Part shown: positions 1,985 through 64,000 of the stretch, one piece after another
Layout of the letters: every line of letters begins with the position of its first letter
Numbering within the stretch: the stretch's first letter is position 1
NCBI GenBank assembly: GCA_016748015.1
Contig: JAAOMT010000502.1
Span: 806,001-870,000, forward strand
Direction of reading: 5' to 3'
Source of the DNA: Geosiphon pyriformis uo1
Lineage: Eukaryota; Fungi; Glomeromycota
Length of the DNA stretch: 64,000 nucleotides
Translations under genes and position numbers: made by a program
Notes under the pieces: model-generated
Seen by the model: the letters and a program-made list of their open reading frames with translations, nothing else
The model's database searches: none
What the model was told of the DNA's origin: nothing

Positions 1985-2875
1985 TGTTACAGATGATTAT
2001 TTCTACTGTTGAATTAAATAACAAATCTGTAACTTGGTGCTCAAAAGCTACTTCCATGGATGAGATTCTGCAAGTGTTGTATTTGAAGGTTTTAATGGAG
2101 TCCTTTGTATAATGGACAGAGATTCAATAGTGCCAATAGTAGATGTATCTTTTCAAGAGTTTTCCCAATTTCTATCTCAATGTGGTGGCCAGATTTAGTC
2201 TGGCAGTCATGCCCTTCTGGTGAGCTATCTGATAATATATAAAATCCTACCCTTATTTCTGGGTCTTTTACCAGGCTATCCTTGACATTAATAACTCAGT
2301 ACTTAATGTTTTAATCAATTAGTATACAACATCAAAATCAAAAAAATCAAAAAAATAAAATAAAGAAAATAAAAAATAAAGAAAATAGAGAAAATAAGTC
2401 AAGGCAATTTGGTACGTTAGTATCTCATTAATAGCCATGATCAAAAGCTATTGTTCCAGCATGGTTAAGTATCAATTACTATCAACATGAAGTATTGATA
2501 GTAGAGAGTGGGTTGAGATATGGAATAATTATTTATTTGATAATTGGGAACTGAAATGTTGCTTAGATTAAATCTAAACTGAGAGGTCTGTCTTTTCAGC
2601 TTCTAATCCTATTGCTATATATACATAATTGAGATTTCTCAATTCCTCAATTCTTTGTGACAGGAATTCTGGGATTTCTGAAATCCTGCAATTCCTGATG
2701 AGAGGAATCCTGCAATTCTGGAATCCTGCAATTCCTCATTGGGGAATCTGAAATTCCTGGAATCCTGCAATTCCTCTGAGAAGAATTCTGGAATTCCACA
2801 TTTACTACATCTACTTCTGATTGGCTAATATCTTCTGACTAATAATACTATATTTTTTATATTCTATGAGTAACA
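1985..2875 (-). repeat. 3' LTR of element B (891 bp)
   Basis: TGTTAC...GTAACA; close copy at 11242-12116; abuts PPT (sense AAAAGAAGGGAATAA). Confidence 0.95.
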
Positions 2876-2888
2876 TTATTCCCTTCTT

Positions 2889-3548
2889 TTAATATTGAGC
2901 TCCATCGAAATCTAATTCTTTTAATTCTCCTTCTTGAATTATTTCTTGAACTTCTTTTTCAAGTATTACTTGTGTTATTTTATTTTGTAGTTCTTCAAAT
3001 TGGGCATTGGTTATTTTTCCCAATTGATTACTTATAACTGTATCCATTACTGTGTTGAGTAAGATTTCTGGTTGGTCTTGAAATCTCATATATAGCCGGT
3101 AAATGGCTCAAGCTTGTGTGGTTAGATTGTTCTTTCCCACAAATTGTTCTAGTTGTCCTAGTATTGTGGTGTCGAATAACCATTTTGTTTTGTCAGTGTA
3201 CAAGTTCTGGATATTTATGTGTTGTTCCAAGTAAAAATAACAATAGTTTTTTGGAAATTGTTGTAACCACCAAGTCCAAGTTTCTCTGAAAAGTTCTTGG
3301 CGTAATCCGACTATTTGTTGTTCTTTCAAAACCAATTTTATCTTGGTCATGATCTTGTCGACTACATTTTCAAGTCTTCTCTGTGCTTTGTTTTGTGGTA
3401 TTTTTGCTGTATTTTTGTAACAAATAGTTTGTTAATTGATAGTAATTTCCATTTCCTGGTGTTGGATTAATTGAAAAATTTGTTGGGCTAGTGAATGGAT
3501 ATTGTCTGTAATCTCCATTTTTTTGATCTCTTCTGTCACATTGACCAT
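2889..3548 (-). pseudogene. Element B third ORF (~219 aa, env position, unknown function), two in-frame stops
   Basis: One frame from ATG 3548 (MVNVTEEIKK...) through track ORFs 3108-3350 and 2889-3089, ending FDGAQY* just before the PPT. Confidence 0.75.
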
Positions 3549-3571
3549 GTTCTTATATATTCTTTTGTCGA

Positions 3572-6500
3572 TTAATTGGACATGTTGTTGTTAATGATAA
3601 TAATTGGTTCCAGATTTCGTGGAATCTCATCTGGTTGGACTAGTATTCTCTGTACTTCTAATTGTGGAATATTACTGGTGGATGATAATGCTATATGGTG
3701 GTATGATTTCAGTCGATCTCTATATGTTGCTTTGGTCAAGATTTTGTTATTCAATCTTAATTTGTAAGCTCCATTTTCTAGAATTTCTTCTATGTGAAAT
3801 GGTCTGTCCCATTTGGGGTCAAATTTTCCACTCCATTGTTTTTCCGCTTTGGTACAATGTAGTAGTACTCTGTCTCCAATTCTGAATTCAACTGGTTTAT
3901 CTGGTAGTTGGTTATTATGTCTTTCTTTTTGTTTCTCTTGTGACTTTTGTATATTATCAGCTGCTCTTCATTGTTTGTTTTCTAATGTTTCTATTAAGTC
4001 ATATGTTTTTTTCAACAATGTATTTTTGAAATTCTCTTCTGTTATTGGTTTGGTTAGATATGTGCTGACTTCTATTTCCACTGGTAGTGTTGCTGTTCTA
4101 CCATATACTAATTCAAATGGTGTTGCTTGTGTAGTATCTTGCTTTATTGTCCAATAAGCAAATAGTACTGATGGTATTAACAAATCTCAATTGTTTTGGT
4201 TTTCTTGGCTGAGTTTAGCTATTGCTTCACACAATGTTCTGTTGAATCTTTCGACTAATCCATTGGTTTGTGGATGGTATGGTGATGATAGTGGTCTCTT
4301 AATTCCGAATCTTTGGCTCAATTCTGTTAATATTTTGTTCACAAAATAAGTTTCTTGGTCTGATAATAATTCTTTTGAACATTCATGTTGACAGATCAAA
4401 TCCTAATGAACAAATTTGGCAATGGATTCTGCATTCGCTCTTTAAATTGCTTTCACCTCTGGCCATTTAGTAAGATAGTCCATGGCTACTGCTATGTATC
4501 TGTTTTCTCTGCTGGTGATTGTTAATGGTCCGACTAGATCAATTCCAACATGGTCGAATGGTTGTCCTACTTTGATTGGTCTTAACAGTTCACTGGGTTT
4601 TGTTCCTCCTTTTCACTGACAAACATCACAATTTTGAACATATTAGATGATGTCTGGATACATTGATGGCCAATAGTATCTTTTTCTGGTTCTTTCCATG
4701 GTTGCTTTTTTGTGAAAATGTCCTGCTGTTAGATTTGAGTACATGTTAAATAATATTGTTTCTTTTTCTGGTTCTGTAACTACTCTGGTTGGTTGATCTG
4801 GATCTTTTCTATTTTTTCGATAAAATATATTTTGGTGAGTGATAAAATATTTTGATTGTTGTTTGATATTCTTTCGTTTCGTTTGAGATAAATTCTCCTT
4901 GAACTGTTGAGTGTTTATATAATGTTAAAGTTGTTAATATTTTTGTATATTCATCTTTTGTTATATTTTTTGTTGGTATTGTTCTGGTTTTGTTATATTT
5001 TTGTGTTAAAATGTTCTTAGATTTGTCTCATTTGTGACAAACCGTTAGCATTTTCATTGTCTTTTCCTTTTTTGTAATATATAGTATAATTGTATGATGT
5101 GAATGCCATTTTTCATCTTGACTGTTTTCCATCTTCAAATTCTTGTTTTTGGAGTGATGTTAATCCCTTATGATCTGTGTATACTTCAAACTTCTGGCTC
5201 AAGTATTCTTTCCATTTCATGACTGCCCAGTATATTGCTAAGTGTTCTTGTTCTGGTGTTCCATAGTTCTTTTTAGCTGGTGTTAAACCTCTGCTGGCAT
5301 ATACTACTGGATGTTTTCTGCCATCTGGTCCTCTCTGAGATAATACTGCTCCCAATGTTTGGCTGAATGCATCAGTGATAATGATGAATAGTTTGCTGTG
5401 ATCTGGATAAATCAGTATTGGAGCTTGAATGAGCTTTCTTTTCAAAATGTCAAAAGCTTCTTGTTGACTTTCTGCCCATTCATATTTGGTATTCTTGGTT
5501 TGCAGTTGGTTAAGTGGCTGCGCTATCTTGGAAAAGTTCTTGATAAAACGTCAATAGTAGCTGGCAAATCCCAAGAATGATTTCAGTTCTGTCATATTGG
5601 TCAGTACTGGAAAGTTCTTTACTATCTCTATTTTCTTTGGATCTGTTTTGATGCTGTCTTTGCTGACTATGTGTCCCAAGAATTTTAGTTCTGTCTTGCC
5701 AAAGAAGCACTTTGTTGCATTTAACTTTAGTCCTGCTCTTCTTAGTCTTTCGAACACTTGTTGAAGATGATGAAGATAATCATCAAATGTTTTTGAGAAT
5801 ATGTTGGTGTCATCCAAGTATACAACTACTGATTTCCACAATAAGCCAGTATAAACAATTTTCATTAGCCATTAGAAAGTGGCTGGTGCATTGGTTAAAC
5901 CAAATGGCATTACTTTAAATTCAAAATTTCCTTCTCTCATGGTAAATGTCGTCTTCTCTTTGTCGGCTGGATCCATGGCTACTTGTCAGTAACCACTATT
6001 TAAGTCTAACGTTGAAAACCATTTGTTTCCACCAAAAGCATCAAATAATTCCTGTATCTGTGGAGTTGGATAGCTGTCTCCATGAGTTACACTATTGAGT
6101 TTTCTGTAGTCCACACAAAATCAGATCTTTCCATTCTTCTTATGGACAAGTACCACTGGTAATAACCATGGGCTTATTAATAGCTAAATTAGCCCATTGT
6201 CAAGCATTCAGTTTATCTCTTGATGAATAATTTCATGGCTGACTGGTGGCACTCTATATGCTCTTTGTTTAATTGGCATTGCATCTCCAGTCTTGATCTG
6301 ATGCTGGATGATATCAGTTTGGCCAAACTCATTTTTGCTGGCAAAGATGTCATTGAACTGGTTAAGCAATATCTTGAGTTGCATATGTTGGAGTGGATCT
6401 AAGTTTCCCATGTTCATTTGTTCCAATTGTTCTGGTTGGAGCAAATAACATTCACTTTGTCTGTATATTGTTTGTGATATGATATCGACATATTCACAAA

Positions 6501-9500
6501 GTTGCAGAAAGTCTGGAATGAGGTTTGGTGGTTGATCTTTTATTTCAGTGTTTAAGTATCCAATAATGGTTCCGGCTGGTATTTCTATGACATTTTCTGT
6601 ATTGTTGTAAATGGGAATTTTGATGTGGCTGTAATCTTTAGCTGGTATGTGGAGATTGATGAATCCAACTTCTCCTGATTCACAAAGACTGGCTTCTGCT
6701 TCAAAAATTTGTGCTTGGTTTTTTTCCTTCCTTTCTATTGCTAGCATGTACTGGTTATATGGTGAAATGGAAATAGCTTGACCAATTGAGATAATTTCTC
6801 CTTGGTCAACAATTTCTTTCTCTGTTATATTAACTAGTATATCTATTCTACCCGTTGATCCGAATCCTTGTATTTCTTTTACTGTTATTCCTAATTCCTC
6901 CCTCTTTCCCACTAATACTAACTGAGCTACTCTAACCAGAGGCAGGAATATTGCCTGTGCTATCTTTTTGTTGGGCTCTATTATATAGGCCTTTTTTGAG
7001 TTATTTTATAGTATAGCGATGATATTTCCTACATATCCCACGTCAATTATTCCTTCTCTTATATTAATTCCTTTTTTCACTAAACTACTCCTAGATGCTA
7101 ATTGAACCATTGTTGTTGTCAGAATTTCTAGTGCTACTTTCAGATCAATGCAGATATGTGAATGTGGTTCTAATTTGATGGCCTCTTTTCCTGGATACCT
7201 CAGATCAAACCCTGCATCAGTATTATGTGTACGTTCTGGCATAATACCTTCCCCATTGTTACTATACCATTTCAACTCTTGTTCTTTGGAGAGATCTGGT
7301 AGTGCAATGTAATGTTCATAGTTTAAATTGGAGTTTGAATCTGAGTTTGAATCGTCTTTGTTGTCATTGCAATTTTGAATGGAGCTGGGAACCAGTGTTT
7401 TTGTCATCGTCGTCGGAGTTTGAATCATGATTGATCAGTGATTTTGATTCTGATGCACAGCTGCTGATTGGTTCTTCTTCTTCAGGGATCATGTAAATCA
7501 TGTGTGGTGGTGGATTGTAAATAAAATCACAATTGTTATAATATTCAAAGTTACTGAGAATTAAACAATGGCAACACAGTCTTGTATTTAACTGTGCTAG
7601 CCAAGTTTTGGTAGTGTTCATGGAACTCTTCTAGTTCCAGAAAATTTATGACTGGCTCTGCGTTCCAGTTAAGCTCGATGGGTTCTGGTGGGTTGTTTTT
7701 AATTGTCCTGATTTCTTCTGGCGACACACCTTCAATTTTGGCAATTGTCATCCACCATAATTCATTATTATCGTGTGGACAACTGTCTAATCGCTGTACA
7801 GCTCTTCTCCAGGTTGCTTCTATGGGTGTTCCTTTCTCGACCCAGTCACTGATGAAGATCGTGTATTGGCAGAACACGTCACATGTTCCTCCTCTCCCCG
7901 GAATGTCGTTCCACATTTCTTTGTCGAGAAGAGTTTCTCTACAGGCTATACATAATGTATTATTCCATTTTCCCACTCGTTTTGGTCTTCCAAAATGTTT
8001 GACACAGCATGCATGGCAATAGAACTTGGTTGCCATCTGATATTCTTCATCGTCACCACAGCATGCACTCATTGACGACAATTTCTTGCCGCAATCAACG
8101 CATATCAATTTGGGTCAGTGATAGGTTAATGATTGTTGTTGACCATAGGTGTATGGGATATAAGTGTTGTTGGCTTGAGTGTTTTCTTCCTCCCTCTCTT
8201 TCCCTTTTCCCTTTTCTTCTTTCTACTCCTAACTCAATGGTTCTTCCTGTTTGTTGTCAGTTCAGATCAAATTGTCTGTTTCCCAGGTCAGTTCCTCTTT
8301 TTGCTTTTCCTTAGGGTTGTCATTCCACGAGAATATCAGTAGTAGTTTGTTGTGATCAGCATCAGCCCAGAAGACTTGGTAAGCTTTCCAGGTAGGTTTC
8401 TCTTTCTTCTCCTCCAGTTTGATCAATAGTTTCTCTCTTGGAGGAGTCTTGAAATGGCCACATGTGGCTGGTACACATATGTATCAGCCCTGATATGTTA
8501 GCTGGAGTTCCAGTCTAATGTCACATTAACTTTGGATAGTCAGTCATTACCAACAAGAGCTTGGTATTGAGTGACTTCCATTACTAGAACTTTAATGAGA
8601 GTCATGATGCCATTGACTTCGAAAGGAAAGTTGTCAATTTCGCCAATTGGAGTTTTGGTTGCTTCATCAGTTGTGATGATTCTGGCGCTGGCAGCTTGAT
8701 CAACTCAGCAACCTAATTGATCCATAAGTTGTTATGTGATGATGCTGTCTGCTAAACCACTGTCAAGGATCAATTTGATGAATTGTCCCTCAACTTTGAC
8801 ATCAGTGTACATTATGGTAATTGGTTTGGCTTCAAGAGCGGCTCCACTAAATAATAGCATTGCAGTTGTTTCCTTGAATTTGAATGGGAATATAGTAGCC
8901 AAAGACTCATCTTCGGTAATGGTAACAGGTGGGATATTACTGGTAAGTAGTTGTTTTTGGGCGAATGCTGGGTTATTAGTTGAGGCATCTTCTGGAGTGA
9001 CCAGGAGACTTAAATAGTTCTGGAAATTTGGGTTCTGGGGTTGACCAGCACCCAAATTCTGCTGGCATAATCCAGATGATTGCTGTGAAGAACTGGGGAT
9101 TGGTTGATGGACTACTATCGCCAATCACCAGCTCTGTTGAGTCATTTTTGGTCTTTGGGTTTCATTGAGTGGTAAGCTTTGGGGTGGTGTTTGGATTTGT
9201 TGGGGCTGATAGATTATTTGTGGCTGTGGTTGTTGATAAATTACTTGTGGCTGCAGTTGATAGATTAGAGCTTGATACACCGGAGATTAATAAACTGATG
9301 ACTGTATCACTGGTAAATAAGCGGATTGGTTTTGATTTGGGTACTGATTTGGAGTTTAAAACTGGCGATTGGGGTTTCGATATTGATTTCCCGATCATTG
9401 GTTATTTAAACGCTGACAACAGTCAATTTGGATATGTCCTTGTTTACCACAATAGTGGCAGATACACGTTTCCTGTTGCCACTGTTGATTGGTCGATGAA

Positions 9501-11179
9501 GATAGACATGGTTGATTTTGGGCATGATTAGAGTTTCTTTGATTATTGCGTCATTGTGGAGGCTAATAAATGGCGTGATTGTCAGCTAAGTATCCTTCCA
9601 ATCTCTTATTAATTGATTCACTGAACTTCTCCAATTTGGAATCCAATTCAGATGATTCATTCATTACTAGATTAACGGCTTGGGCATGGTTAGCCTCTGA
9701 CTCAGCGGATTCAAAATCTCTGGTACATGTGACTGTGTCTTAAAAGGTGCCTGGATGCAACAGATGTACATGTTGTAAGATGCTGCTGCGCAGGCCATGG
9801 ATAAACTGGTTGAGTATCTGTGGGGCTGTGAAATAGTTGGCATTAATTGCTTGAATTTGGTGCAGGTTTTGATGAAAGTGTCCCAAGTAAGTGGTGACCA
9901 CTTCAGTTTCTCCTTATTTCATGGTGGTAAATGTATTGACTAGGTGATTGATGCTGTTATTGTTGCTGAAGTATCTTAGGAATTCCACTTTAAAGGCATT
10001 AAAATCTTATGGTTTATTAACCAAGCTCTAATACCATGAATTGGCAGTATTCTTGAGAAAGTAGGGAATGGCTTGCATTGCCTGGATGTCATTCCATCCA
10101 TTGGCTGTAATGGCCTTTTCTACATCATTTAGCCATGCTTGAGCATCGTCCTCTTCGCCAGTAAAGTTGTCAAGTTTTGTGATTGGTGCGTAGGCCATTG
10201 GATCTAAGTTAGGTGGTTGTGGTGGCTGTTGAAGCAGTTGTTGTTGTACTGGTTGTTGGGATGGTAGTTGAAGTGGCTGTTGTATGGGTTTGGCTATGGG
10301 ATTAATCAGTAGTTGATCAATGACAATTACTAGAGATAAGTTTTGCTGATTAATTAATTCAGAGTTTGGGTTGTTCTGCCTTTGATGATTCGGAGTTTCG
10401 ATTTCCAAATTTTTTAGATTTAGATTTTGCTAAGTTTGAAAATTCAGGGTTTCAACTTCTGGGTTTTCAATGATTGGGTGTTGGTAAGTGAATTCTTGAT
10501 CCTCTGATTCTTCTTCCTCTTTTTCTGATTCTGCTGCTTCCCACAGATTAGAGATTCTGAAATCTGGTGGAGGCGGTGGTGATTGAAGTCCTAATGGGAT
10601 TGATGATCGCGAATTAAATCTCTCAAAGTATTCACCATATGGTCCTAATAATTCTGTTTTCCTTTGTCTACTTTGGAATGGGAATTGTCCAAATACTGAT
10701 GTCGCAGTTGATAGGAATGCATCTGTTGATAATATGTTGATGGCACTTCCAGGTGTATAGTGGTAGGATGGGTTGCTTGGGAATTCAATTCTGTTTTTTT
10801 TCCAAGTAGATGGCTGTATTTTTCTGGATGTTACTGCTGGTGTTTGTAGTTTTCTCTTGCCTTTATTAACGTATGTAATTGGATATCTTTGTTGAGTGTA
10901 GTGTTCAATTTCTTTGTTGATCTCAGTGATGATGGATGTGAAATTATGATTTGTTGGTAGGTTGGTGTTTTGAATTAACTCCCTATAGAAAGTTTCTTTT
11001 GCTGATTCAGTATTCACTGGTGTTCCTAATAAAGAGGAAATCTTTTCGTTGATGTAGAAATTGAAGGCTGATTCGGCAGATATATGATTGTGGTTTAATC
11101 CCAAGTATTGACAATAGTATTGAAATAAGGATTTTGCAAATCCTAAATGGTTTGCTCCTATATTTTCTGATTCTGCCAC
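3572..11179 (-). pseudogene. Element B gag-pol polyprotein, disrupted
   Basis: ORF pieces: gag (MAESENIG..., 10028-11179), protease LILDSG (8732-9124), Cys-rich region (7551-8108), dUTPase, RT YLDD (5551-5865), RNase H TDA (5113-5445), integrase YHPQTNGLVER (4187-4399) ending DRLKSYH. Many stops and frameshifts. Confidence 0.9.
6850..7270 (-). pseudogene. dUTPase domain within element B pol
   Basis: Trimeric dUTPase motifs AGFDL, SRSSL, GIIDVGYVGNI, IAQAIF and the C-terminal GFGSTG, located between protease and RT. Confidence 0.92.
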
Positions 11180-11241
11180 TTTTGGATGGTGTTTGTTGGT
11201 GCTGGTTCTCTGTAGGATTATATTTCACAGGAAGCACCAAA

Positions 11242-12116
11242 TGTTACAGGTGATTATTTCTACTGTTGAATTAAATAACAAACCCGTAACTTGGTGCTCA
11301 AAAGCTACTTCCATGGATGAGATTCTGCAAGTGTTGTATCTGAAGGTTTTGATGAAGTCTTTTGTATAATAGACAGAGATTCAATAGTGCCAATAGTAGA
11401 TGTATCTTTCTAAGAGTTTTTCTAATTTTTTTCTCAGCGTGGTGGCCAGATTTAGTCTGGCAGTCATGCCTTTCTAGTAAGCTATCCGATAATATATAAA
11501 ATCTTACACTTATTTCTGGGTCTTTTACCAGGCTATCCTTGACATTAATAACTCAGTGCTTAATCTTTTAATCAATTAGTATACAACAACAAAATTAAAA
11601 AAAGAAAGAAAATAAAATAAAGAAAATAAAAAATAAAGAAAATAGAGAAAATAAGCCAAGGCAATTTGGTATGTTAGTATCTCGTCAATAGTCATGATCA
11701 AAAACTATTGTTCCAGTGTGGTTAAGTATCAATTACTATCAACATGAAGTATTAATAGTAGAGAGTGGGTTGAGATATGAAATAATTATTTATTTAATGA
11801 TTGGGAACTGGAATGTTGTTTAGATTAAATTTAAACTAAGAGGTCTGTCTTTTCAGCTTCTAATCCTACTGCTATATATACATAATTGAAATTTCTCAAT
11901 TCCTCAATTCTTTGCAACAGGAATCCTGGGATTCCTGAAATCCTGCAATTCCTGATAAAAGGAATCCTGGAATTCTGGAATCCTGCAATTCCTCATCAGG
12001 AAATCCTGCAATTCCTCTGAGAGGAATTCTGGAATTTCACATTTACTATGTCTACTTCTGATTGGCTAATATCTACTGACTAATAATACTATATTTTCTA
12101 TATTCTATGAGTAATA
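11242..12116 (-). repeat. 5' LTR of element B (875 bp)
   Basis: Direct repeat of 1985-2875; followed in element sense by TT + PBS TGGTGCTTCCTGTG. Confidence 0.95.
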
Positions 12117-25792: not shown

Positions 25793-25997
25793 GATGAAAG
25801 TTGTTATTTTATTTATTTTATTTCCTTGATTTCTACATATTTTTCTACAGCTAAGAGATTCATCACTTATATAGCTATCAAAAGTGGTTAATGATCAGGT
25901 TAATAATCACTTTCTAAAAATAGAATGGCTAATTTATATAACATTAGTGGCTAATACATGTGATAATTAATAAGAAGTATAAGTTTCAACTGTAATA

Positions 25998-26185: not shown

Positions 26186-26250
26186 CAATTAGAACTCTAT
26201 AGTTGTCTTGGTAAAATTATAGAAGACATAAAACTAATAAAGAAAACAAA

Positions 26251-41400: not shown

Positions 41401-43126
41401 TCTCAGTTCTTTTGTGAAGGAATGAATTTTTTGCTTTTCTGTCCAGTTCCTTCCAGAGTCTACACACTTGATCAATTTTCTGATTGCTTTGGCATATTCA
41501 GTTACAACTTCATTAGGACCTTGGATTCTTTTTTCTAATTCCATGCACCACTTGGATATCAAGATTGAGATTCTGAACTTGTTTTCAAACCAGGTTGTAA
41601 AAGAGATGTTGTTTTCTCTGGCATTTGCTGGCATTTATCTAATGATTCTTTGATGGGCATTAACATCAGTTTCTTGTAAGAACCATGTAGCAGAGAAGCC
41701 TTGGAGGTAGCCACCAACAATTTGAAACTTGTACTCATCATCGTATTGGTTGGCTGTAGCAGCTCTCTCAAAGTCATCCAATCATTCAATTAGATCTTAG
41801 ACATTACCTCTGAATAATGGTAATGGGGTGTTGTTTCTTCACCCTAAAGCAGTCTGTATACCTTGAAGAGCAATTAGAATGTTTTGTTGCAAAGAGTTTT
41901 GAGCCATTGGTTCAGGTGTAACTGTTTGTGTGGAGTGTTCTGATTCACTTAAAAAGAGATCAAAAACAGGAGCAGTTTGATAGCTTTCTTCTTCTGTTTC
42001 AAGAAGAGTTTCTGTTGATTGATGGGCAGCAATCCAAATATGAATTTAATGATTCAGATATTCAAAATCAGGGGGCTGTTGTTCAAAGGTTGCAAAATAT
42101 AAAAGCTGATTGATACTGTTGTTTTTTCCTTCAAAGTTGTCTTCAAAATAAGCTTGGTCAAAGTAATAGATTGTATAAGCTGTGTAGATTTCAGCTGAAT
42201 GCTGGTTCAAGAACCAGTTCCAAAAGTCTTGGAATTGTCTACTGGATTGTTCTTCAATGGGGAAGCAGATCAAGCAGGAGGGCAGAGGATTAAGTTCAAT
42301 GAAATCTAGGTCATTTCTATTGTGTGCTACAAAGTGTTCTTCTAATTGCTGTGACAGATATGAGTAATTACCCATACAATAAGGGAATAAGTGAATTTTA
42401 ACAACCTCACAGAGAGCACCACTTTTATGTTATGGGTTGGAGTAACAAGCTAATGGATAGCAAGAAAGAACAGGATTGTAGAGTAATGAAAATAATCAAA
42501 GAAAATTCAACTTCAATAAGCAAATTGAATGAGTATGGATTCAATGTGTGAGATCAGTCTCATAAAATATCTCAGTCACTATTTTTTTCAAAAGGTAACA
42601 AGAGAATCTAAAGGTAGAGGAATAGTCCATACTGTCAACAATTGATAACTGCTGGTATAATTCTATGCCTCATGTTGGCATTTTTAGAATTCAATATCAG
42701 ATATCAACTTGTGCTCTTCAGTTATGTTTATTCAAATAATCTTCAAATACTGTAATTACACGTTTTAGAAAAGTGGCAACAAGTAATTTTTTATCCAAAA
42801 AATGTTCAGATACTTGAAAATAAAGAAAGAAAAATTAGCAATAAGAGAATGTTTGAGATAGAAGTTTGTTATTTTATTTCTTTGATTATCTTGATTCCTT
42901 ACATTGATATTTTTCTACAGCTAAGAGATTCATTACTTATATATCTATTAAAAGTAGTCAATGACCAGGTCAATGATCAGGTTAATGATCAAGTCAATGA
43001 TTAGGTCAATGGTCAGGTTATTGATCAGGTTAATGATCACTATTTAAAAATAGGGTGGCTAATTATGTGACATCAGTGGTTAATACATGTAATAACTAAT
43101 AAAAACTATGGGTTTCAACCATAACA
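35460..43126 (-). mobile_element. Family A copy A6, two LTRs (35460-36101, 42428-43126), full internal region, no matching TSD
   Basis: ORF3 36071-36526, IN 37559-37990, RH/RT 38283-39337, PR 39803-40738, gag 41116-42375, PBS ~42405-42421. Flanks ATGT and TTAC differ. Confidence 0.9.
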
Positions 43127-47790: not shown

Positions 47791-49443
47791 GAAAGAAAGA
47801 AGTTTTTTTTATAAAATTATTAAAACTTGTTAAATTTTAAGTTTTTTAAAAGATGTTTTGCTATTATTATTAATTTTATTAACTTTTTTATTTTTTGTTT
47901 TAAATAATATTTTATATATTACTTTTTGTAAAAATTTAATTTGTAAAAATAATTTTAATAATATTAAAATAATCATTATAAAATTAGTTGTTTTTATAAA
48001 ATAATTAATATTATATTACAAAAACAGAATTTAATTATATAAATTTAAATATAAAATTATAATAAAAAAAGTAGTTTAATTAGAAATAATAAGTTAACTT
48101 CTTATAATTTATATAATTTATTAAGTAAAATTTTTAATAAAATAATATATTTGTTTAGTATTATTAAATTTTTGTAATAAAAATTTATTTTTATTATATG
48201 TATTTGTTTTTTAAGTTTAAATGATAATAATATTATATATATAAATATATAATATAGTTTTAACTGATTTAAATAACTAATATATATAATAAATATGTAA
48301 ATTATATTTAGTTAAAAATACTTAATTTGTTTTTATATATATTTTTTTATTAAAATTTAATAAGTATAGTCTAATTACTATCTAATATACAAAGTTAAAA
48401 CTAAGAATCCTAGCTAAATACAATTCATGTTTTTACTACATATGATTAGTTATTTGGATCAATTAAAACAATATTATGTCTTTATATAAATCATTATATC
48501 AGACCAGAAAAAAACAAGCAGAGTTTGCAAAAACCAAAGCTAATCACAAAAGACTCATTAATACTAATTAATCTAATTATTCTGTTTAATAAATTTGATA
48601 TCAAATTATAAAACTCATTAAATACTATTCTGAAATTATTAATTAAATCACATTTTTCTATATCTGTCTTATATTTAAACCTAAAACTTCACAAATCAAA
48701 ACAATGTTATTTACCCAAACCACTGTTTTTATATATTAAAAAAATAATTAAGTTGTGTTTATTAAATATTTTAATAAAATAAATAAATAAATATATGCTT
48801 AAATACATAATAACAATAATATTGTTACGATTGAAACCCATAATTTTTATTAATTATCACATGTATTAGCCACTGATGTCATATAATTAGCCACTCTATT
48901 TTTAAATAGTAATCATTGACCTAGTTGTTGACCTGGTCATTGACCACTTTCAATAGCTATATAAGCAATGAGTCTCTTAGCTGTAGAAAATTATCTTTCA
49001 GACAAGAATCAAATAAATAAAAATAACAACTTTTATCTCAATCACTCTCTTATTACTAATTTTCCTTTCCCTACCTTCAAGTATCCGAACATTTTAGGAT
49101 AAAAGATTACTTGTTGGCCTTTTCTTAACATATATAATTGTAGCATTTGAAGATTATTTGAATAAACATGACTGAAAAGCACAAGTTGATATCTGATATT
49201 GAATTCTAAGAGCACCGATGTGAGACATAGAATTATACCAGTGGTGATCAATTGTTGATAGTATGGACTATTCCTCTACCTTCAGATTCCCTTGTTACCT
49301 TTTGAAAAGAATAGTGACTGAGATATTTTATGAGACTGATCTCGCACATTGAAGTTGAATTCCCTTTGATTATTTCCATCACCCTACAATCCTGTTCTCT
49401 CTTACTATCCATTAGCTTGTTACTTCAACCCATAACATAAAAG

Positions 49444-49460
49444 TGGTGCTCCCTATAAGG
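49444..49460 (+). promoter_or_regulatory. Primer-binding site, complementary to elongator tRNA-Met 3' end
   Basis: TGGTGCTCCCTATAAGG; consensus of 7 PBSs in the window is TGGTGCTCCCTGTGAGG, the reverse complement of CCTCACAGGGAGCACCA, close to recalled eukaryotic elongator tRNA-Met 3' ends. Confidence 0.75.
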
Positions 49461-49489
49461 TCGTCAAAATCCACTTTGTTTCCTATTGT

Positions 49490-51029
49490 ATAGGTGATTA
49501 TTTATACCTGTCATAACAATCAGAAGAACATTTTAAAACACACAACAAAAACAATCTAGACTTTTCTTTTGCCCTTCTGCTTGATTTGCTTTCCCATTAA
49601 AGAACAATTCAGTAGACAATTCCAAAACTTTTGGAACTGGTTCTTGAATGAACATTCAGCTGAAACTTACATAGCTTATACAATCTATTACTTTGACCAA
49701 GCTTATTTTGAAGACAACTTTGAAGAAAGAAACAACAGTATCAATCAGCTTTTATATTCTGTAACCTTTGAACAACAGCCCCCTGATTTTAAATATCTGA
49801 ATCATCAAATCTACATTTGGATTGCTGCTCATCAATCAACAGAAACTCTTCTTGAAACAGAAGAAGAAAGCTATCAAACTGCTCCTGTTTTTGATCTCTT
49901 TTTAAGTGAATCAGAACACTCCACACAAACAGTTACACCTAAATCAATGGCTCAAAACTCTTTGCAACAAAACATTCTAATTGCTCTCCAAGGTATACAG
50001 ACTGCTTTAGGGTGAAGAAACAACACCCCATTACCATTATTCAGAGGTAATGTCTAAGATCCAATTGAATGATTGGATGACTTTGAGAGAGCTGCTACAG
50101 CCAACCAATATGATAATGAGTACAAGTTTCAAATTGTTGGTGACTACCTCCAAGGCTCTTCTGCTACCTGGTTCTCACAAGAAACTGATGCTAATGCCCA
50201 TCAAAGAATCATTAGATAAATGCCAGCAAATGCCAGAGAAAACAACACCTCTTTTACAACCTGGTTTGAAAACAAGTTCAGAATCTCAATCTTGATATCC
50301 AAGTGGTGCATGGAATTAGAAAAAAGAATCCAAGGTCCTAATGAAGTTGTAACTGAATATGCCAAAGCAATCAGAAAGTTAATCAAGCAAGTAGACTCCA
50401 AAAAAAACTGAACAGAAGAACAAAAAATTCATTTCTTTACAAAAGGATTGAGAACTGACTTATCTTATGCTCTTTGGCCTCTTTTGGCTTTGAAAGACAA
50501 CCCTACAATGGACATGGCTATTGAACTTGCCCAAAGGATTAAAGATAACCAAAGAATGTAACTGGGATTCACACTTCCAGTTTTTGCTCCTGCTCCTGCC
50601 ATGGCCCCTGCTCCTCAAATGGCTGCTACTTTTTTTGCTGCCCAAACCCAAAACCCAAATGAACAATTAATAGATAGACTTACAGCTAACCTTGCCTGGT
50701 TATTAGAACTGTTGGCACAAGCAGTCAGAGATAACCAGTAACCACCAAGATCTAGATATGAATCTCGTTTTAACCAGCCCCAGCAACCTTCCTATCAAAG
50801 ACAGCAAAATCATGGCCCACCTGTGTGCTATTGTTGTGGATTAACTGGACATTATTCAAGAGATTGTAACAATTCTCCACTGCCTCCTCCAGCTCCCAAA
50901 AACAATGACAACCAAAACAACAGACTCAACAACAATGTTCCCAATCAAAGACCCAATCATGCCAACATTAATTTTTTTGGAGAGGATCTCCTAGTTGAAA
51001 CCACTGTTTATCAGTCTTTAAACTGGTAA
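49490..51029 (+). pseudogene. A7 gag, disrupted
   Basis: Track ORFs 49569-50015, 50220-50411 and 50823-51029 with knuckle CYCCGLTGHYSRDC. Confidence 0.85.
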
Positions 51030-51055
51030 GCACACTTCCAAAGGGTGAGAGTGCA
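51017..51055 (+). promoter_or_regulatory. -1 ribosomal frameshift signal (T TTA AAC plus downstream stem) joining gag and pol
   Basis: Heptamer in correct gag phase just before the gag stop; pol (51113) is the -1 frame; GCAC...GTGC stem starts 6 nt downstream; heptamer retained in A1, A4, A5 and A6. Confidence 0.85.
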
Positions 51056-54000
51056 AGCCAACCAGAAGAAAACTTCTTTTATGCTTTTAACTTAACTGAT
51101 GATGACCATGACATGGATGAACTAGCAATCAACACCTCAGAACCAACCAGAAAGAAGAAGAAAGCCAAGGTTGATTTCATTCTAGACCCCAACAAAGTCT
51201 CAACTTCTGCCACTAATAACAATAAGCCACTAAAGGCTAAAGTTTTTAAGAATTCTCCAAAGTTGGAACCCCCAGAAATTGTACAAAAATCTGGACTCTA
51301 TTCCATTGTTAAAGATCTCATGGAAACTCCAGCACATATTACCTTTGGCCAGTTAATGACCCACCCACAGTTCAGAAAGGATCTTTGCAAATCCTTAATC
51401 CCAAAGAAGAAAACACCAAAAACCAACAAGCACTCTTGTCAAGCTGGACTTACTGACAACAACAATGTCACCTCTCTGATTTGTAAAGCCCAAGTGGCTG
51501 AATACTTTATTGACTTAATTCTGGACAGTGGATTATCTGTTAGTGTCATTGTCAAACACTTCTTAGAAGCAATTGGTAAAAAGATTGATGAACCTTTCAC
51601 CAGACCAATAACCAACGTACATGGTGACAAAAAGAAAAGACTGGGTATTGCCAAAGCTGTTCCTGTCTACATCAATGGAATTAGTATTGAAACTGACATG
51701 GAAGTTTCTGAAGCCAAAGAATACACCATCATTGTTGGCAATGAATGACTCAAGAAAGCAAAAGCTTTGCTTGATTATGAACTTTGTGAATTAACCATCA
51801 GATGTGGTGAGAAACCCATTGTGGTTAAGTGTCATCATTGGACAACTCTCCCAGTACCCAAACAAAACCAAGAAGAAGAACAATCAGATAAATCAGATAA
51901 TGAAGAGAGTGATGAAGAAGAAGAACAAAAAAAGCAAGAAGAAACTGCTGAACTCACCTATACCACCTTTACCAGCAATGGCAAATCACTGGACAATGTT
52001 AAAGCAGACAAAGAAGGAATCATTGTAAATGGCAAGCTGATCTGCTGGCCTTATTATGATATCCTTAGAAAAATCTTTGAAAGAAAACCTGGCAAGAAAG
52101 CCAAATACAGTTTTTGGTGGCATGGTTCTTGTGTCTGGTGTTGGTGCAACAAACCCTTGTATTCTCCAAGTGATAAATGCAAATTATGCCTGATCTATTA
52201 CAGAGATTGGGAACCAATCAGTTTGATACCCAGAGAAGAATTGAAAAAAGTACAGAAGTCCTTTGAGAATGAACCACCTGAGATCCAATTACTGGTTGTG
52301 GAACAAAAAAAACCCTCTCCAGAAGAAAGAAAAATAGACATTGAAAATTTGCTGGCTAGAAATAGCCCAGTTATCTCCAAAGAAGATGATACCCCTGGAC
52401 GTACCCATGTGATACAATACACTATCACCACCAAAAAAACTCGACTCATCCATTTGAAGCCTTATCAATTCAATCGGCACAATGATGAGTTTATCAAGAA
52501 AGAAATAAACTGGATGAAAGAACTTGGATTCATACAAGAAACCAAGAATGAATGGGCTTTTTCAGTTGTAGTGGTATCCAAGAAAAGTGGAAAACTATGC
52601 TTCTGTGTTGACTACTGCCAATTAAATGCCATCACTAAAAAAGACATGTATCCACTTCCCAAGATTGATGCAATGTTAAATCAATTCAAAGATGCTGCTT
52701 TCTTCTCAATCATTGACTTAACTGCTGGATTCTGGCAAGTAGAGATGGATCCAGAAAGCAGAAAGAAAACTGTCTTTATTACCAAGTATGGCACCTATGA
52801 ATTTACAGTCATGTCTTTTGGTCTCACCAATGTCCTTCCCACCTTTTAATGCTTAATGGATAAAGTATTTGAATCAGTCAAGGAAAACTTTGTTCTAGTC
52901 TATTTGGACGACATAATGGTATACTCAAAAACCTGGGATAAACACCTGGAACATTTGCAAAAGGTTTTTGACCTCTTTAGAAATGCTGGCCTCAAGATCA
53001 ACCCTACAAATCTTTTTTTGGAAAACAATCCACTTAGTTTCTTGGTCATCTTATCACAAAAGATGGAATTTTTCCTGACCCAAAGTTGAAAAAGTCCAAA
53101 ACATCAAACAACCAATGAATATTTATGAACTACACTCTTTTCTTGGTTTGGCTTCTTATTATCACAAATTTGTCAAGGATTTCTCCAAAATCGCCTCTTC
53201 TCTCAATCAGCTACTCAAGAAAAATGTCAATTACCATTGAAAAACACATCAGCAAAAAGCCTATGAAACTTTAAAAGAAAAACTGGTTACAGAACCCATC
53301 CTCAAGCAACCTAATCTAGATCGACCCTTTATCCTCCATACTAATACATCTGGCTTTGGACTTGGTGCTGTTCTCTTCCAGAAAGATAAAGATGGCAAAG
53401 AACATACTATAGCCTATGCCAGTAGAATCCTTTTCCCAGCAGAACAGAACTATTCAGTTACTGAACAAGAATGCTTAGCAGTAGTATGGTCCACCAGTTA
53501 CTGAAGTAAGTATCTTCTTGGTGTGAAGTTTTTGGTGGTAACAGATCACCAAGCTTTGGTTTGGCTGCACAACAAAAAGAGGCTAGAACACAAACAGATA
53601 ACTCACTGAATACTCCACTTGGATGAATTTGACTATGATATTTAACATTGCAAAAGAGCTAATCATCAAAATGCTGAGACTCTCTTCAGACTTACCATCC
53701 AATGACAGAACAACCCTCTTAAACCAAACCAACTTAATTATTAGTAATTTTTCCTTTTTGACAAACACGATAATGGACTTGGATGACTACTCTGCCTTAA
53801 TAGAATTTTTGGGTAAAGGACAATACCCACTGAAATACACACAACAACAAAAAGAACATTTGCGCAAATAATCAAATTTCTATTTGATTTGCCAGAACCA
53901 ACTTTATAAAAGAAATAAAAAAGATCTTAACTGCCCCCAGAGAGTTATCAGATTTGAAGAAAGAGAAATTGTGATCTACAATATGCACACTGATTCATTA

Positions 54001-55086
54001 GCTGGACACTTTGGAAAAACAAAAACAATTCAGAAAACTCTAGCTCATTATTATTGGCCTACCTTGAGAAAAGACATTGCTGAATACATTAAAACCTGTG
54101 ATATCTGCCAAAGAAGAGGAAAACCCAATCGCAAAGAAGATATTCATCCAATCTCTGTTGGTCAATCCTTTGACAGAATTGGTATAGATGTTGTTGGATC
54201 TTTAACAATAACTCCTGATGGCAACAGATATATTATCACAGCTACCGACTATCTTACAAAGTGGGTAGAAGCAAGAGCCACTCCAGACCAAACAGCAGTC
54301 TCAATAGCCAATTTTATTTATAAAGATATTATTTGTTATCATGGCTGCTCCAAAGAACTTTTATCTGATAGAGGAAGAGCTTGTCTTAGTACACTTGTTG
54401 AAGAACTTTGCAGAAAAATGGGAATACGTCACAAACTTTCCTCTCCTTATTACCTCCAAACAAATGACCTAGTGGAACATTTTAATAAAACACTATATGA
54501 AACCCTAGCCAAAACCAGTGAAGAAACAAACTTATGAGACAAAGTACTGCCTTCAGCTTTGTTCGCTTATAGAACTGTGAATTATGACATAACAAGATAT
54601 GAATCCTTTTATTTACTCTATAGATGAATGGCAACTCTACCAATAGAAACTGACATTGAGACAATACCCTTTGAAGAAATAACAATAGAGAATTACAAAG
54701 ACACTTTGCAAAGAAGACTTGGTACTATTCTTGACTCATTAGTAAAAACATGGATAATTGCCTTTGAAAAAATAAAACAATTCCAAGAGAAGCTTAAGAA
54801 AAAGAAAACATATAAAACACTTTCCTTAAGTGTTGGTGACTTAGTTTTAGAATACTGTTCAGACAGAGACAATGTCTATGGTAATAAATTCTCTAGCTGG
54901 TGGAAAAGACCCTTTATAGTCAACAAAGTTTTGAACAATGGTTCTTATATCTTACAAGATCAATATGGAACAATCTTCAATGATCACTCTGTTCATGGCA
55001 CACGACTCAAAAAATATTACAAATGACCTGATTGGTTATCTGTTGTGGTAATATCAACCCAAATAATCAACAAAAATCAGATATAA
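51017..55086 (+). pseudogene. A7 pol (PR, Cys-rich linker, RT, RNase H, integrase), disrupted
   Basis: LILDSG (51113-51748), RT (51767-53089, YLDD), IN 53884-54537 and 54628-55026; several stops and frameshifts. Confidence 0.92.
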
Positions 55087-55127
55087 ATAAATGTACCATT
55101 TCCAAAACAGAGGTATTTCCAATTGAC

Positions 55128-55784
55128 ATGAACAATTATTTTTTAGATCAGAACATTCAAAATGCTTTCTATACTCTCCATGAGTACTGGATTAAAAACT
55201 ATCCAAATGCTACTCTGACCATTGGAAAACAAACTACAATAATTGACAACAATAGAACACATACTGTTATCAGACCAAAGAAAACAACTACCAGAAGAGA
55301 AAGAATTGGTAGCAAAATAGATAAGTATTTGCTAGAAAGCATAACAGCAGCAATACTTATACCTTTCATGACAATTGGAAAAATTATTAAGGAAATCTTG
55401 TCCATAGACAAAAACTTGTCATATGGAAGACAACTAGAACTCTATAGTTGTCTTGGTGAAATCATAGAAGAAATAAAGCTCATGAAAAAAACAACTTTAG
55501 AGATACAAGTGGAAATTTTGGGCATTATACGTTTAGATGTCCCAAGAGTTTTGACCATTGCAAGAAAAGCCAAAACTCTTATACAAAAATTTGGTCTCTT
55601 GGATACAAAGCTTATTTCACTTCAAGTACTATATACTCTATCCACAAAAGACTTTAACAAACTAGTTAGTTTTGAGTTAGACAAAACCCTTCAATTAAAA
55701 TATCCTATAAATAGCTTGATTTCACCGGAGCTCAATCTCTTTGAAGAGGATGATATTATGGTTGAAACCCATAATTTTTATTAA
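55128..55784 (+). CDS. A7 third ORF, 218 aa, intact, unknown function; runs through the PPT into the 3' LTR
   Basis: Open from MNNYFLDQ to VETHNFY*; homologous frames at 18148-18645, 36071-36526 and 46468-46854. Confidence 0.75.
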   Translation: MNNYFLDQNIQNAFYTLHEYWIKNYPNATLTIGKQTTIIDNNRTHTVIRPKKTTTRRERIGSKIDKYLLESITAAILIPFMTIGKIIKEILSIDKNLSYGRQLELYSCLGEIIEEIKLMKKTTLEIQVEILGIIRLDVPRVLTIARKAKTLIQKFGLLDTKLISLQVLYTLSTKDFNKLVSFELDKTLQLKYPINSLISPELNLFEEDDIMVETHNFY

Positions 55785-56396
55785 TTATCACATGTATTAG
55801 CCACTGATGTCATATAATTAGCCACTCTATTTTTAGATAGTGATCATTGACCTAGTCGTTAATCTGGTCATTGACCACTTTCAATAGCTATATAAGCAAT
55901 GAGTCTCTTAACTGTAGAAAATCATCTCTCAGACAAGAATCAAATAAATAAAAATAACAACTTTTATCTCAATCACTCTCTTATTGCTAATTTTTCTTTC
56001 CCTACCTTCAAGGATCTGAACATCTTAGGATAAAAGATTACTTGTTGGCCTTTTCTTGACATATATAATAGTAACATTTGAAAATTATTTGAATAAACAT
56101 GACTGAAAAGCACAAGTTGATACCTGATATTGAATTCTAAGAGCACCAATGTGAGGCATAGAATTATACCAGTGGTAATCAATTGTTGATAGTACAGACT
56201 ATTCCTCTATCTTCAGATTCTTTTGTTACTTTTTAAAAAGAATAGCAACTGAGATATTTTATGAGACTGATTTCGCACATTGAATCCATACTCATTCAAT
56301 TCACTCATTGAAATTGAATTCCCTTTGATTATTTCTATCACCCTACAATCCTATTCTCCCTTGCTATCCATTAGCTTGTTACTCCAACCCGTAACA

Positions 56397-58456: not shown

Positions 58457-60877
58457 ATGCCTTCGACGTCAAAATTGCGAACCAATCTTCCTTCAGAAAT
58501 AACTCTTTATTCAGAAAATCATAGGTCGCTATTGCTTGATACTTCTAGTGATGACGGCAGCCAAGAAAGCGAAGAGTCTGAGGCATTTCTGCAGGAGTGC
58601 CGGATTGTGAGAATATATATATTTAATGCTCTGAAAAAAAAAAAACAGGTAAGGTGCAGTTTATTCTCTATAGCTTTAAACCCTTCAAGTAGTCTTTGGT
58701 ATTATCAATTACAATTCTTAACCTTTCAAGTCTAGAAACGCCACATAATTTTCTCGCTTTAATCGAGTGAATTAAATTTTCCCATTTTCAAAAGTTCAAC
58801 CCAATATCGATTTACAATTTACCATCAAAAAAAGATTAAAAATTCCAAATTTTTTAAAAGACCCCACCAATTTGATCTTTCTTTTTCTAAAGGGTGATTC
58901 GGTGGACTATGAGCACATAATTCACCAATTGAAAGCTCCTCCTAACAGTTCAGATGCCCTTCCCCCTCAAAGATTACTTTTTTGGATCATGGGCTTCTCC
59001 CAGAATACATCTTTGATGAATATTTCTTTTCGTCCCCTCGTAAAAGCAATAATTGATATGGACTGGATTACTCACGATGAGAATATACTCCGGAAATTTC
59101 TTGGATTTCTTCGGAGTCTCATTTGTGCGCATTCATGCTATGCTATGGAAGCTCTTAAAATGACGATCAGAAAATTCACCCGTGGTAAATGTTTATTTAT
59201 TTGACTATCCTAATAATTGCTAAAATATAACTTAAGTCTTTTTCTGTATATATTGTTCAAAACTAACCTCAGATAATACTGCCTTCGTTAACACAGAGCC
59301 AGATTTTGGTACGGCTCATGACAAAGATATATTTAGTACCAATCTTCATCGCATAGTTAAGGTTTTAATAAATGCTACTGAATCATGGGGGTCCTCGGTT
59401 TTTCCTATCGTTGAACGTGAATTTCCACATATGCAAGACTCACGATTAGCTCTAGTTAATTACATTAAGAATTTGTTGCTCATGATTGGTTATGCCACGG
59501 ATCTTCGATCTAAAGTACTCCAATTAATTATTGAAAGAATCCTTCTCATTGACGTAAGTTTTTACACTTCTCAATTTACCTGAGTGAAATTATTGCTCAA
59601 ATATTCAACATATTTCAACTTGAAATCATACTCAGACTGAAATTCAGGGAAGTATCGAGGAGGCTGAGGAGGCTGAAGATGAGATTGAAGCCTTTGATTT
59701 AAGGTTGTATTTCAATAATTGCAAGCCAGAAGCAGGAGTAATAACAAATAAAGTTCCAAAAGGCATCAGTTCAGACATTGAAATGTCTGATGATAAGAGT
59801 GACATGGATATGAACGAGGTTTCCAGCGACTTTGAATTGGAATCAGAAGAGTCCGATCTCGATGATAACACAGGTGGTGTCGTTAAAATTGATGCAAGAG
59901 ATATGATGGAAAAGCTAGATTGCTGCATGAAATTATTATTTGATTACTTGTATTATGGTGACAAAATACCTATGTCTAAAGCAACAGATACAAATGATGC
60001 ATTCCAAGATCTAATGAGAATATTTTCGACGACAATCCTGCCCACTTTCAAATCTCGATACACTCAATTCTTATTGTTTTGGCATATATCCTTAAATGAA
60101 TCGTTTCTTGAAACTTTCATAGCAACTCTATTCAGCAATCTTTTGAATGAAGATTGTCCTCAAGGCGAGAAAATCTCCTCTGCCTTGTATATAGGTTCCC
60201 TCGTAGCTCGAGCAAAATTTATTGAGGAAAGAACTGTGAGATCTTGTGTGAAAATGCTTGTAACAATTGGACGACAAGAAATAGTCCTCGTTCAACACGA
60301 TGTATACGGCTCAGACCCTGATAAATATGGTGTATTCTATTCAATAGCTCAGGCTCTCATGTACATTTTCTGTTTCCGTTGGAAGGATCTAGTTGCCAAA
60401 GAAAATAAGGAATTCAATCAAGACCAGAATGGAGGATTTAAAAATATTGTGCAAGACCACATTGGGCATTTGAAATGGTGCTCTGAAATAGAAGGATTTG
60501 AGGATTTAATCACCTCCCCCCTTGAACCCTTAAAGGTATCAGAATAATCAGCCAATTTTTGCGTTGTTTCTTATTCATCGTGTGGGGAATCTTATAAAAT
60601 TTCTATAACACAGGTTTGCGCACCAGATATCGTGAAACAATTCGTAAGATTATCAGGAATTCTTCGTTTCTCATATTGCTACTCCTTATTATCAAAAGGA
60701 AAAAGATGCATAATGCCCAATCGTGTAGCAGGCGATGAACAGGGAGAAGCGCCCATGCGGCTTGATCAATTCACTTTTTTTCCTTTTGATCCATTCCGGT
60801 TAAAAACTTCTCAATGCTACTTAAATGGTTTATATAGAGAGTGGGAGGAAGTAAATCTTGCCGATGAAAATGAATGA
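58457..60877 (+). CDS. RRN3: RNA polymerase I transcription initiation factor RRN3 (TIF-IA), 5 exons, ~642 aa
   Basis: Exons 58457-58648, 58893-59184, 59273-59553, 59636-60535 and 60614-60877 join in frame via GT-AG introns; motifs ID-TEIQ, acidic loop, LPTFKSRYTQFLLF, FYSIAQALMYIFCFRW, PLKVC, FFPFDPF. Confidence 0.93.
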
Positions 60878-62614: not shown

Positions 62615-64000
62615 TGTTATTCATAAAAAGAAAACAGATATAGAAAATAGCAGACCAATAAGAAAATAATATTTAGCATGTGAGCACATTGCTCAGCAAT
62701 GTGGAGCAATATCAGAAATCATGGCACATTGTTCAAAAAATCATAGCACATTGCTCAAGAATGTGAGTGATCTTATAAAACATCAATTATGTATATATAG
62801 CAGTAGCATTAAAAGTAAAAAGAGCAGAATCTTTTAGTTAGAAATCTTCTATCCAAAAATATCAAATAAATAAATCATTCACTATCCAAATCCACTCTTC
62901 ACTATCAACACTTTATGTCGATAGTAATTGATACTTAACCATACTGGAACAATAGTTCTTGATCATGGCTATTGACAAATACTAACTTGTATATTGCCTT
63001 GGCTTATTTCTTTATTTTTTTTTTATTTCTTTTCTTGATTTTATTGTTGTATATTAACTGATTAAGGATTAAAGCGCTGAGTAATTGACGTTATGGATAG
63101 CCTGGTAAAAAACCCAGAAATAAAGATAAAATTATATATATATTAACAAATAGCTTACCAGAAGGGCACGAATGCCAGAATAAACTGGCCACCAAGCTAA
63201 AGACAGAAATTGGGAATACAACTCACCAACCAACTACATTGTCATTGAATCTCTGTTCATTATACCAAAGACTCAATGCTAAAACCTTCAGATACAACCA
63301 ATATACTGATAACACCAGCATTGTTAAGATATTGAACACCAAGTTATGGATTTGTTATTTGATTTGAGACCCCAAATAATCATCTGTAACATTTGGTGCT
63401 CCCTATGAGGTATAATCCTACAGAGAACCAGCACCAATAACATTCATCCAAACAGTGGCAGAATCCAAAAAAACAGGGACAAACCATTTAGAATTCGCAA
63501 AATCTTTATTCCAACACTACTGTTAACATTTAGGATTAACCAACAACTACTTATCAGCAGAATCAGCTTTCAATTTTTATGTTCACAAGAGAATCTCATA
63601 TTTACTAGAAGTACTAGTAGAAACTGATTTAGCCAGAGGAAACTTCTACAATGAATTAATTCAGAATACCAGCCTACCAACAAATTACAATTTCACAGCA
63701 ATTCTCACTGAAATCAATAAAGAAATTGAAATTCACACTCAACAAAAATATCCAATTACCTATGCAAACAAAGGCAAAAAAAAATTATAAACACCAGCAG
63801 TAACATTTCAAAAGATACAACCATCCACTTTAAAGAAAACAAGAGTTGAATTACCAACTAATCCATCATACTATTATATACCCAGAAGTGCCATCAATAT
63901 TACAGGTGCATTTACATCAAACATGACATCAATCTTTGGACAATTTTTATTTTAGAGTAAACAAAGGAAAGAAGATCTTCTAAGACCATATGGTGTGTAT
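62615..64000 (+). mobile_element. B-related Gypsy (B2): 5' LTR 62615-63391, PBS 63394-63410, start of gag; truncated by window end
   Basis: LTR ends match B; PBS TGGTGCTCCCTATGAGG; downstream DNA homologous to B gag 10.6-11.2 kb. Confidence 0.9.

Follow-up and report, generated by a model that had tools for sequence, protein, structure and literature searches.

The long U5 of family A, a Ty3/gypsy family of Geosiphon pyriformis, carries two boxes that, once joined, are antisense to the anticodon arm of tRNA-Met, and several relatives whose primer-binding site (PBS) appears to be of another tRNA type carry instead a box antisense to the arm of that other type. We propose that these boxes probably offer the primer tRNA a secondary binding site in the 5' RNA, working like the C-rich region and the A-rich loop of HIV-1. 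The novelty lies in the box apparently changing with the PBS across several relatives, since extra tRNA contacts are themselves known from HIV-1 and others; in the literature consulted, mainly openly accessible, boxes of this kind were not described for any Glomeromycota element.

Organisation of family A

The 64,000 nucleotides analysed (hereafter the window) are crowded with decayed LTR elements, and their CpG content is 0.17 of expectation. Family A was assigned to Ty3/gypsy on the order of its domains (reverse transcriptase, RT, then integrase), LTR ends of the form TG...CA, a PBS and a short polypurine tract immediately 5' of the 3' LTR. Its LTRs measure 610-740 nt, and in the copy at 48823-56396 every reading frame is broken. 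The features of this copy are as follows.

48823..56396, + strand: family-A Ty3/gypsy element, RT then integrase between two LTRs
48823..49437, + strand: 5' LTR, with TATA at 48958-48964 and AATAAA at 49012-49017
49278..49288, + strand: box 1, antisense to tRNA-Met positions 37-47
49289..49327, + strand: spacer of 39 nt, from which one copy has lost 11 nt; its hairpin is weak and variable
49328..49339, + strand: box 2, which contains the Met codon and is antisense to the 5' anticodon stem and loop of tRNA-Met (positions 27-38)
49444..49461, + strand: PBS, likely of elongator-Met type, beginning 6 nt past the LTR end, decayed in this copy
51749..52849, + strand: broken pol, RT part (PF00078)
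53872..55026, + strand: integrase part of the broken pol (PF17921, PF00665), following RT as it does in Ty3/gypsy elements
55128..55784, + strand: extra ORF between integrase and 3' LTR, without a Pfam family over the cut-off
55755..56396, + strand: 3' LTR, sharing 93.5% identity with the 5' one; its boxes are at 56209-56219 and 56259-56270

We infer an R/U5 boundary that gives family A a U5 of about 400 nt. Given the positions of TATA and AATAAA, the boxes should lie inside this long U5, and the RNA would therefore carry them at its 5' end only. An Rfam scan of 48800-49600 returned six matches, all far under the cut-off, and ARAGORN called no tRNA anywhere in the window.

Other features were recorded in passing. 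The U3 of family A contains a 12-bp tandem repeat of about 2 to 9 units depending on the copy (48914-48945, 15723-15866, 17848-17943 and 42932-43051). The extra ORF is found at the same place in many relatives (e.g. L012:2613-3053) and has 28 matches among protein representatives, with no Pfam family over the cut-off; the versions of family A and L012 do not align to each other. A poly(A)-tailed repeat family with about three 3' ends occupies window positions 21289-28670, and the tail of one of its copies joins an A LTR within the spacer, near 28665. Among the elements also lies a host gene, RRN3 (RNA polymerase I initiation factor, 59624-60547), 100% identical to the Geosiphon pyriformis protein.

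Two boxes antisense to the anticodon arm of tRNA-Met

A first-pass annotation of this DNA had described both boxes, the 39-nt spacer and a PBS about 100 nt downstream, and all four were found where it placed them, the PBS starting at 49444. The distance is right for the copy it described, which has a 28-nt deletion and 104 nt between box 2 and the PBS; about 132 nt separate them in the others. The boxes do recur across A LTRs as it had claimed: of 9 copies (8 full, 1 partial), 6 show box 2 unaltered and the other three differ from it at a single place, while the box-1 10-mer is exact in three of the eight full copies, has one change in four and three changes in one, all of these changes being C/T or G/A.

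The antisense relationship was borne out with tRNAs that serve as surrogates for those of Glomeromycota, as in all our tRNA comparisons. Seven of the eight viral-contig matches to the joined boxes are tRNA-Met(CAT) genes, and the same anticodon arm is present in a eukaryotic tRNA-Met (L138) and in a human Met(e) oligonucleotide given in the available text of PMC1797187. The split-box pattern matched the viral contigs once, at a place without a tRNA, and this match was judged to be chance; a host-like tRNA-Met pattern gave no match in prokaryote genomes. Two separate matches of at least 10 nt occurred in only 12 of 20,000 dinucleotide shuffles of the family-A U5, and just one of 100,000 base shuffles yielded a pair that was both adjacent and collinear, so that the arrangement is not due to chance. 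For two A copies the predicted gain in binding amounts to -21.2 and -16.7 kcal/mol, against about -4 kcal/mol for shuffles.

The break between the boxes had been located beside the anticodon, at the 37/38 site of tRNA introns. This site is possible, but positions 37-38 are contained in both boxes, and the break may be drawn at 36/37, 37/38 or 38/39. A bulky modified base at position 37 could, we presume, favour a break there, an explanation that is not needed since the threonine boxes described below cross position 37.

The same annotation had offered, as an alternative, the capture of part of an intron-containing tRNA-Met gene in antisense. Boxes and spacer would then both derive from that gene, the spacer being its intron, and would now be neutral or in secondary use. 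No positive support was obtained for this origin, which we consider unlikely. The would-be intron, 40-41 nt long if the break is set at 37/38 (ambiguous by 2 nt), has as its third-last base a G that could pair with C32; tRNA introns carry a purine third from their end, and a purine at this place is near chance. The sequence before box 1 also resembles the T arm faintly and in collinear order (4-6 nt, by eye). Against capture, the exact match stops at positions 27 and 47 with flanks that do not continue into the D and T arms, the spacer contains no triplet complementary to the anticodon, and no Pol III A or B box was found in the eight A LTRs. Moreover, box 1 occurs in families B and B2 and in locus L095 without any spacer-like sequence, the threonine relatives span 37/38 unbroken, and capture leaves unexplained that the boxes appear to track the PBS.

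Box 2 could also be seen as the site of a half-tRNA primer, of the kind used by copia and Ty5, or as the target of a tRNA fragment, rather than as a grip on a full-length primer. It does cover positions 27-38, the region of half-tRNA priming (PMC5371799, PMC10886601, as far as their available text describes it). Its location within U5, 98-126 nt before the LTR end, intact LTR ends followed by a full 3'-end PBS, the gypsy order of domains and the lack of box 2 in family B all speak against such a role, and we hold it to be very improbable.

The spacer hairpin proposed earlier did not stand: its z-scores are -0.4 and -0.85. At 49315/49316, T>C accounts for 42% and G>A for 34% of the depth of contigs mapped to the region. 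The variants of the hairpin 3' arm trace to an ancestral CpG, which leaves a mismatch, and the 5' arm exists in two types among A copies; the perfectly paired consensus is therefore partly an artefact of decay.

Nor did the boxes exceed the flanking U5 in conservation among the eight full A copies, box 1 ranking at the 54th and box 2 at the 13th percentile of windows. Decay at the rate of the flanks is expected of dead copies, so that this comparison is uninformative to mildly negative on selection. Among 40 of the 107 variable places found by contigs over 49100-49500, none lies inside the boxes, a count that supports no conservation figure. One 270-nt contig from a second sequencing run, whose type we guessed, keeps both boxes, restores CpGs and says nothing on expression. 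Separately, an 8-mer at 49210-49217, about 230 nt before the PBS, could in its CpG-restored form pair with the first 8 PBS bases (two G-U pairs), a match near chance.

A shared box in families B and B2

The window also contains a second family, represented by B and B2.

12116..1985, - strand: family B
from about 62630, + strand: B2, of the same second family as B
11338..11347, - strand: box 1 in the U5 of the family-B 5' LTR, 108 nt before its PBS
63284..63293, + strand: box 1 in the B2 LTR, 110 nt before its PBS
11222..11299, - strand: family-B U5 hairpin (z -5.5) that by prediction hides the first 8 PBS nucleotides, and the PBS itself (11239-11222)
63334..63411, + strand: predicted PBS-burying hairpin of B2 and PBS (63394-63411; z -3.7)

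The claim that B and B2 each keep one box was verified: both contain the box-1 10-mer, the sole 10-mer common to A, B and B2, and family B lacks box 2. The U5s of A and B cannot be aligned (local scores of 32-37 against shuffle means of 37-38), and the two families are only 48% identical in integrase and 42% in RT; in a quick tree, built without a test of clades, they are not sisters and B forms a long branch. They have one PBS type. The between-family signal is clear, with unalignable U5s and a diverged pol, yet a common box 1. For the B U5 by itself, any match of at least 10 nt arose in 487 of 20,000 shuffles.

The predicted binding gain for family B is -13.1 kcal/mol, against about -4 for shuffles. 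For B2 it is only -4.6, no better than shuffles, and an internal hairpin is predicted to sequester the B2 box. The hairpin that covers the PBS in B and B2 shows one pair changed on both sides; burial is clear for local hairpins, and over 300 nt only 3 of 25 shuffles keep it short of significance. Burial of the PBS as a general rule was rejected, being mixed in A and absent in all six valine-type families. As a separate observation, the pol of family B includes a dUTPase domain upstream of RT (PF00692, E 2e-8, over the cut-off; 6208-7434, - strand).

The PBS had been said to match the 3' end of the same tRNA type as the boxes. This was sustained in part, again with surrogate tRNAs. A 17-nt PBS pattern matched 24 viral contigs, and the four matches that are tRNA genes are all Met(CAT); their anticodon stem differs, and they are not host-like. 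The eukaryotic tRNA-Met L138, whose arm matches the boxes, agrees with the PBS at 12 of 15 positions and has an identical T stem. Among the yeast probes given in the available text of PMC11601438, Ile-UAU agrees at 11 of 15 positions, which weakens the assignment, and iMet shows no resemblance. The A/B primer is, on these matches, likely to be elongator tRNA-Met.

Relatives in metagenomes

Relatives were collected by an integrase alignment search, from which we retained the best 80 of 435 confirmed metagenome loci together with 23 loci from metagenome-assembled genomes (MAGs); integrase searches of viral contigs gave no locus in one case and one weak locus in the other. An acceptable LTR-PBS junction was present in 12 of the 80 metagenome loci and 1 of the 23 MAG loci; four candidates were dropped and two near-copies merged (L126 with L125, L084 with L080). 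The PBS candidates rejected, L062, L088, L095 and L133, had no G opposite tRNA C61 or lay within coding or U5 sequence. The relatives, too, were placed by a quick tree without a clade test. Many prokaryote MAGs were seen to contain eukaryotic retroelement contigs (L011-L033, G001-G005), and G001 has many near-identical, SINE-looking copies resembling tRNA-Thr.

A box matching the type of its own PBS was found in five of the eight PBS-bearing lineages (A, B/B2, the valine clade, L060 and L065). The other three are without a clear box: L073, with a Thr-like PBS, and L080/L084 and L092, with a PBS resembling the decayed Met one. L095 has an exact box 1 in its U5, on a contig that ends before the PBS.

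Valine-type relatives

Six distinct families have a PBS that matches the yeast Val-AAC probe at 14 of 17 positions (probe from the available text of PMC11601438). All six contain GCGTGT 72-116 nt upstream of the PBS, followed by C in five; the motif is absent from ten other upstream segments (eight true junctions and the later-dropped L062 and L095), and its background is 9 of 1291 windows, valine loci included. It is antisense, over 6-10 nt, to the anticodon and 3' stem (from position 35 to 40 and beyond) of L040, a viral tRNA-Val that here stands in for a eukaryotic one. The L040 arm ranked among the top 4 of 68 tRNA arms in all six families. The C opposite position 34 of tRNA-Val would, we assume, fit reading by inosine. 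Patterns for tRNA-Val matched nothing in viral contigs; of the matches obtained besides, two had no tRNA called and two further ones were at control level. The valine families form one clade in the quick tree (integrases 61-74% identical), hence the motif has a single origin.

Two further observations concern these U5s. A second conserved motif, TCCCT(G), lies 43-61 nt before the PBS in all six (L012, L103, L113, L115, L125, L131), and is, in some predicted folds, a candidate pairing partner for the PBS in its 3' portion. All six loci also have a hairpin in the last 50 nt of U5, just before the PBS, built from differing sequences and similar to the retroviral U5-IR stem; an alignment-based fold of the valine U5s did not recover this hairpin and gave no covarying pair.

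The valine motif is short and GU-rich, and lies 45-61 nt past AATAAA in five families and 30 nt past it in one, where a GU-rich poly(A) element could sit. This raises the alternative that something else preserves the motifs (a poly(A) downstream element, a site for a protein or intramolecular structure), their complementarity to tRNA in the relatives being coincidental. Besides the valine spacing, such a reading could draw on the three lineages without a box and on boxes 1 and 2 themselves, which mirror a stem and can pair with neighbours in the LTR RNA. The Met boxes, however, lie at least 260 nt and the L065 box about 175 nt past the first AATAAA, and further families with AATAAA lack the valine motif. 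Separate accidents would have to be assumed for the arrangement found once in 100,000 shuffles and for each of three tRNA types in which box and PBS agree, and we judge coincidence improbable.

Threonine-type relatives

Three families on separate branches (L060, L065 and L073) have a Thr-type PBS, that of L060 agreeing with the yeast Thr-UGU probe, as given in the available text of PMC11601438, at 13 of 16 positions; the integrases of L060 and L065 are 57% identical. Two of the three, L060 and L065, contain CCT-N5-TT-ACN, in the register of the Met boxes with a Thr codon and no spacer. The motif is absent from 13 other U5s and present in 19 of 1244 background windows (1.5%); this register was noticed post hoc.

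A pattern derived from the Thr box matched 46 viral contigs, 43 of them at tRNA-Thr genes. As the pattern itself forces complementarity, this shows only that the box is antisense to a Thr arm that is common in nature. Of these 43 genes, 14 are perfectly complementary to the L060 box over 13 nt, and 29 are complementary to the L065 box over 13-14 nt, with perfect complements of 14 nt; a viral tRNA-Thr 3' end agrees with the L060 PBS at 13 of 15 positions. Part of the L060 box recurs in the PBS of the same element. L062, a close relative of L065 on a contig that does not include the PBS, retains at 5615-5626 just that portion of the Thr box which faces the variable loop and 3' stem, as in B for Met.

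A probable second grip on the primer

In the mechanism we favour, the 3' 18 nt of the tRNA would anneal to the PBS while U5 folds back onto the anticodon arm. This weak arm would be opened as two short helices of one turn each, the spacer being looped out between them. Such a second grip would aid primer selection, packaging or minus-strand initiation, selection together with initiation being our best guess by analogy. Family B has box 1 by itself, which may serve as a toehold next to the hairpin predicted to hide the PBS. The box was apparently re-matched at each change of primer (Met, Val, Thr). The suggestion of a multipartite primer-capture structure made from the first reading of the sequence is thus retained in its essence, given a box 1 common to the unalignable A and B LTRs and boxes that appear to change with PBS type in relatives; the analogues it named, Ty1 and Ty3, are replaced by HIV-1.

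A broader proposal, which we put forward tentatively and hold to be possible rather than probable, is that a widespread Glomeromycota-type Ty3/gypsy group reads the anticodon of its own primer: the U5 box would show the codon (AUG, GUC, ACA/ACC) and be rebuilt, perhaps by copying from the tRNA, at each switch, and priming would need both PBS and box. If true, anticodon reading would be a natural, repeated counterpart of the engineered primer-switch experiments in HIV-1.

How a retroelement chooses and keeps one primer tRNA has been argued mostly from HIV-1, for which the available text of PMC5066621 describes short contacts and conflicting models. Long boxes and natural primer switches make the role of an anticodon-arm contact testable by comparative genomics and by annealing and priming assays. 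The boxes would also serve as a sequence marker for the long U5s of this LTR group; in a fungus bearing it, LTR sequence is reported to be 41.2% of the genome (PMC11952901, available text).

Comparison with known systems

The accounts of other systems below follow the available text of the sources cited. The Helenus TRIMs are non-autonomous elements with tRNA-derived LTR sequence that keep the Pol III A and B boxes (PMC10886601). Family A is like them in having tRNA-related sequence within a fungal LTR and unlike them in encoding pol and containing only the antisense anticodon arm; a match resembling the A and B boxes is absent from the eight A LTRs and two B LTRs, stray matches occurring only in the B2 slice. 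In copia and Ty5, priming uses a half tRNA (PMC5371799), whereas here box 2 lies within U5 and the LTR is followed by a 3'-end PBS.

Ty1 has a multipartite and Ty3 a bipartite PBS, both for initiator tRNA-Met and involving its T and D arms, the second part in Ty3 being about 4800 nt away, in U3 (PMC5371799). Pairing between element and tRNA beyond the 3'-end PBS is common to these systems and ours, but our boxes match positions 27-47 only and the PBS is unlike the yeast iMet probe. Drosophila gypsy has a second site for tRNA-Lys2, an 11-nt stretch complementary to part of the anticodon stem that anneals the tRNA in vitro; this site, directed against the anticodon and T stems, is located close to the 3' end of the RNA, whose two ends it bridges (PMC1635307). 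Geosiphon family A resembles it as a gypsy-type element with an extra anticodon-stem site and differs in having its boxes in U5, at the same RNA end as the PBS.

The closest analogue is HIV-1, closer than Ty1 or Ty3, with U5 contacts to tRNA-Lys3 described for the C-rich region, for the A-rich loop and for the PAS (PMC11251516, PMC13191261, PMC5066621, PMC1797187). The fungal boxes differ in belonging to Ty3/gypsy elements, in their length (10-14 nt), in their distance from the PBS (65-270 nt) and in apparent natural switching between Met, Val and Thr; for the PAS, which is directed against the 5' T arm, there is just the 4-6 nt resemblance upstream of box 1 mentioned above. What the two systems share, as judged with surrogate tRNAs, are U5 elements placed before the PBS and directed against the 3' anticodon stem together with the variable loop and against the anticodon loop, in the same order (PMC11251516).
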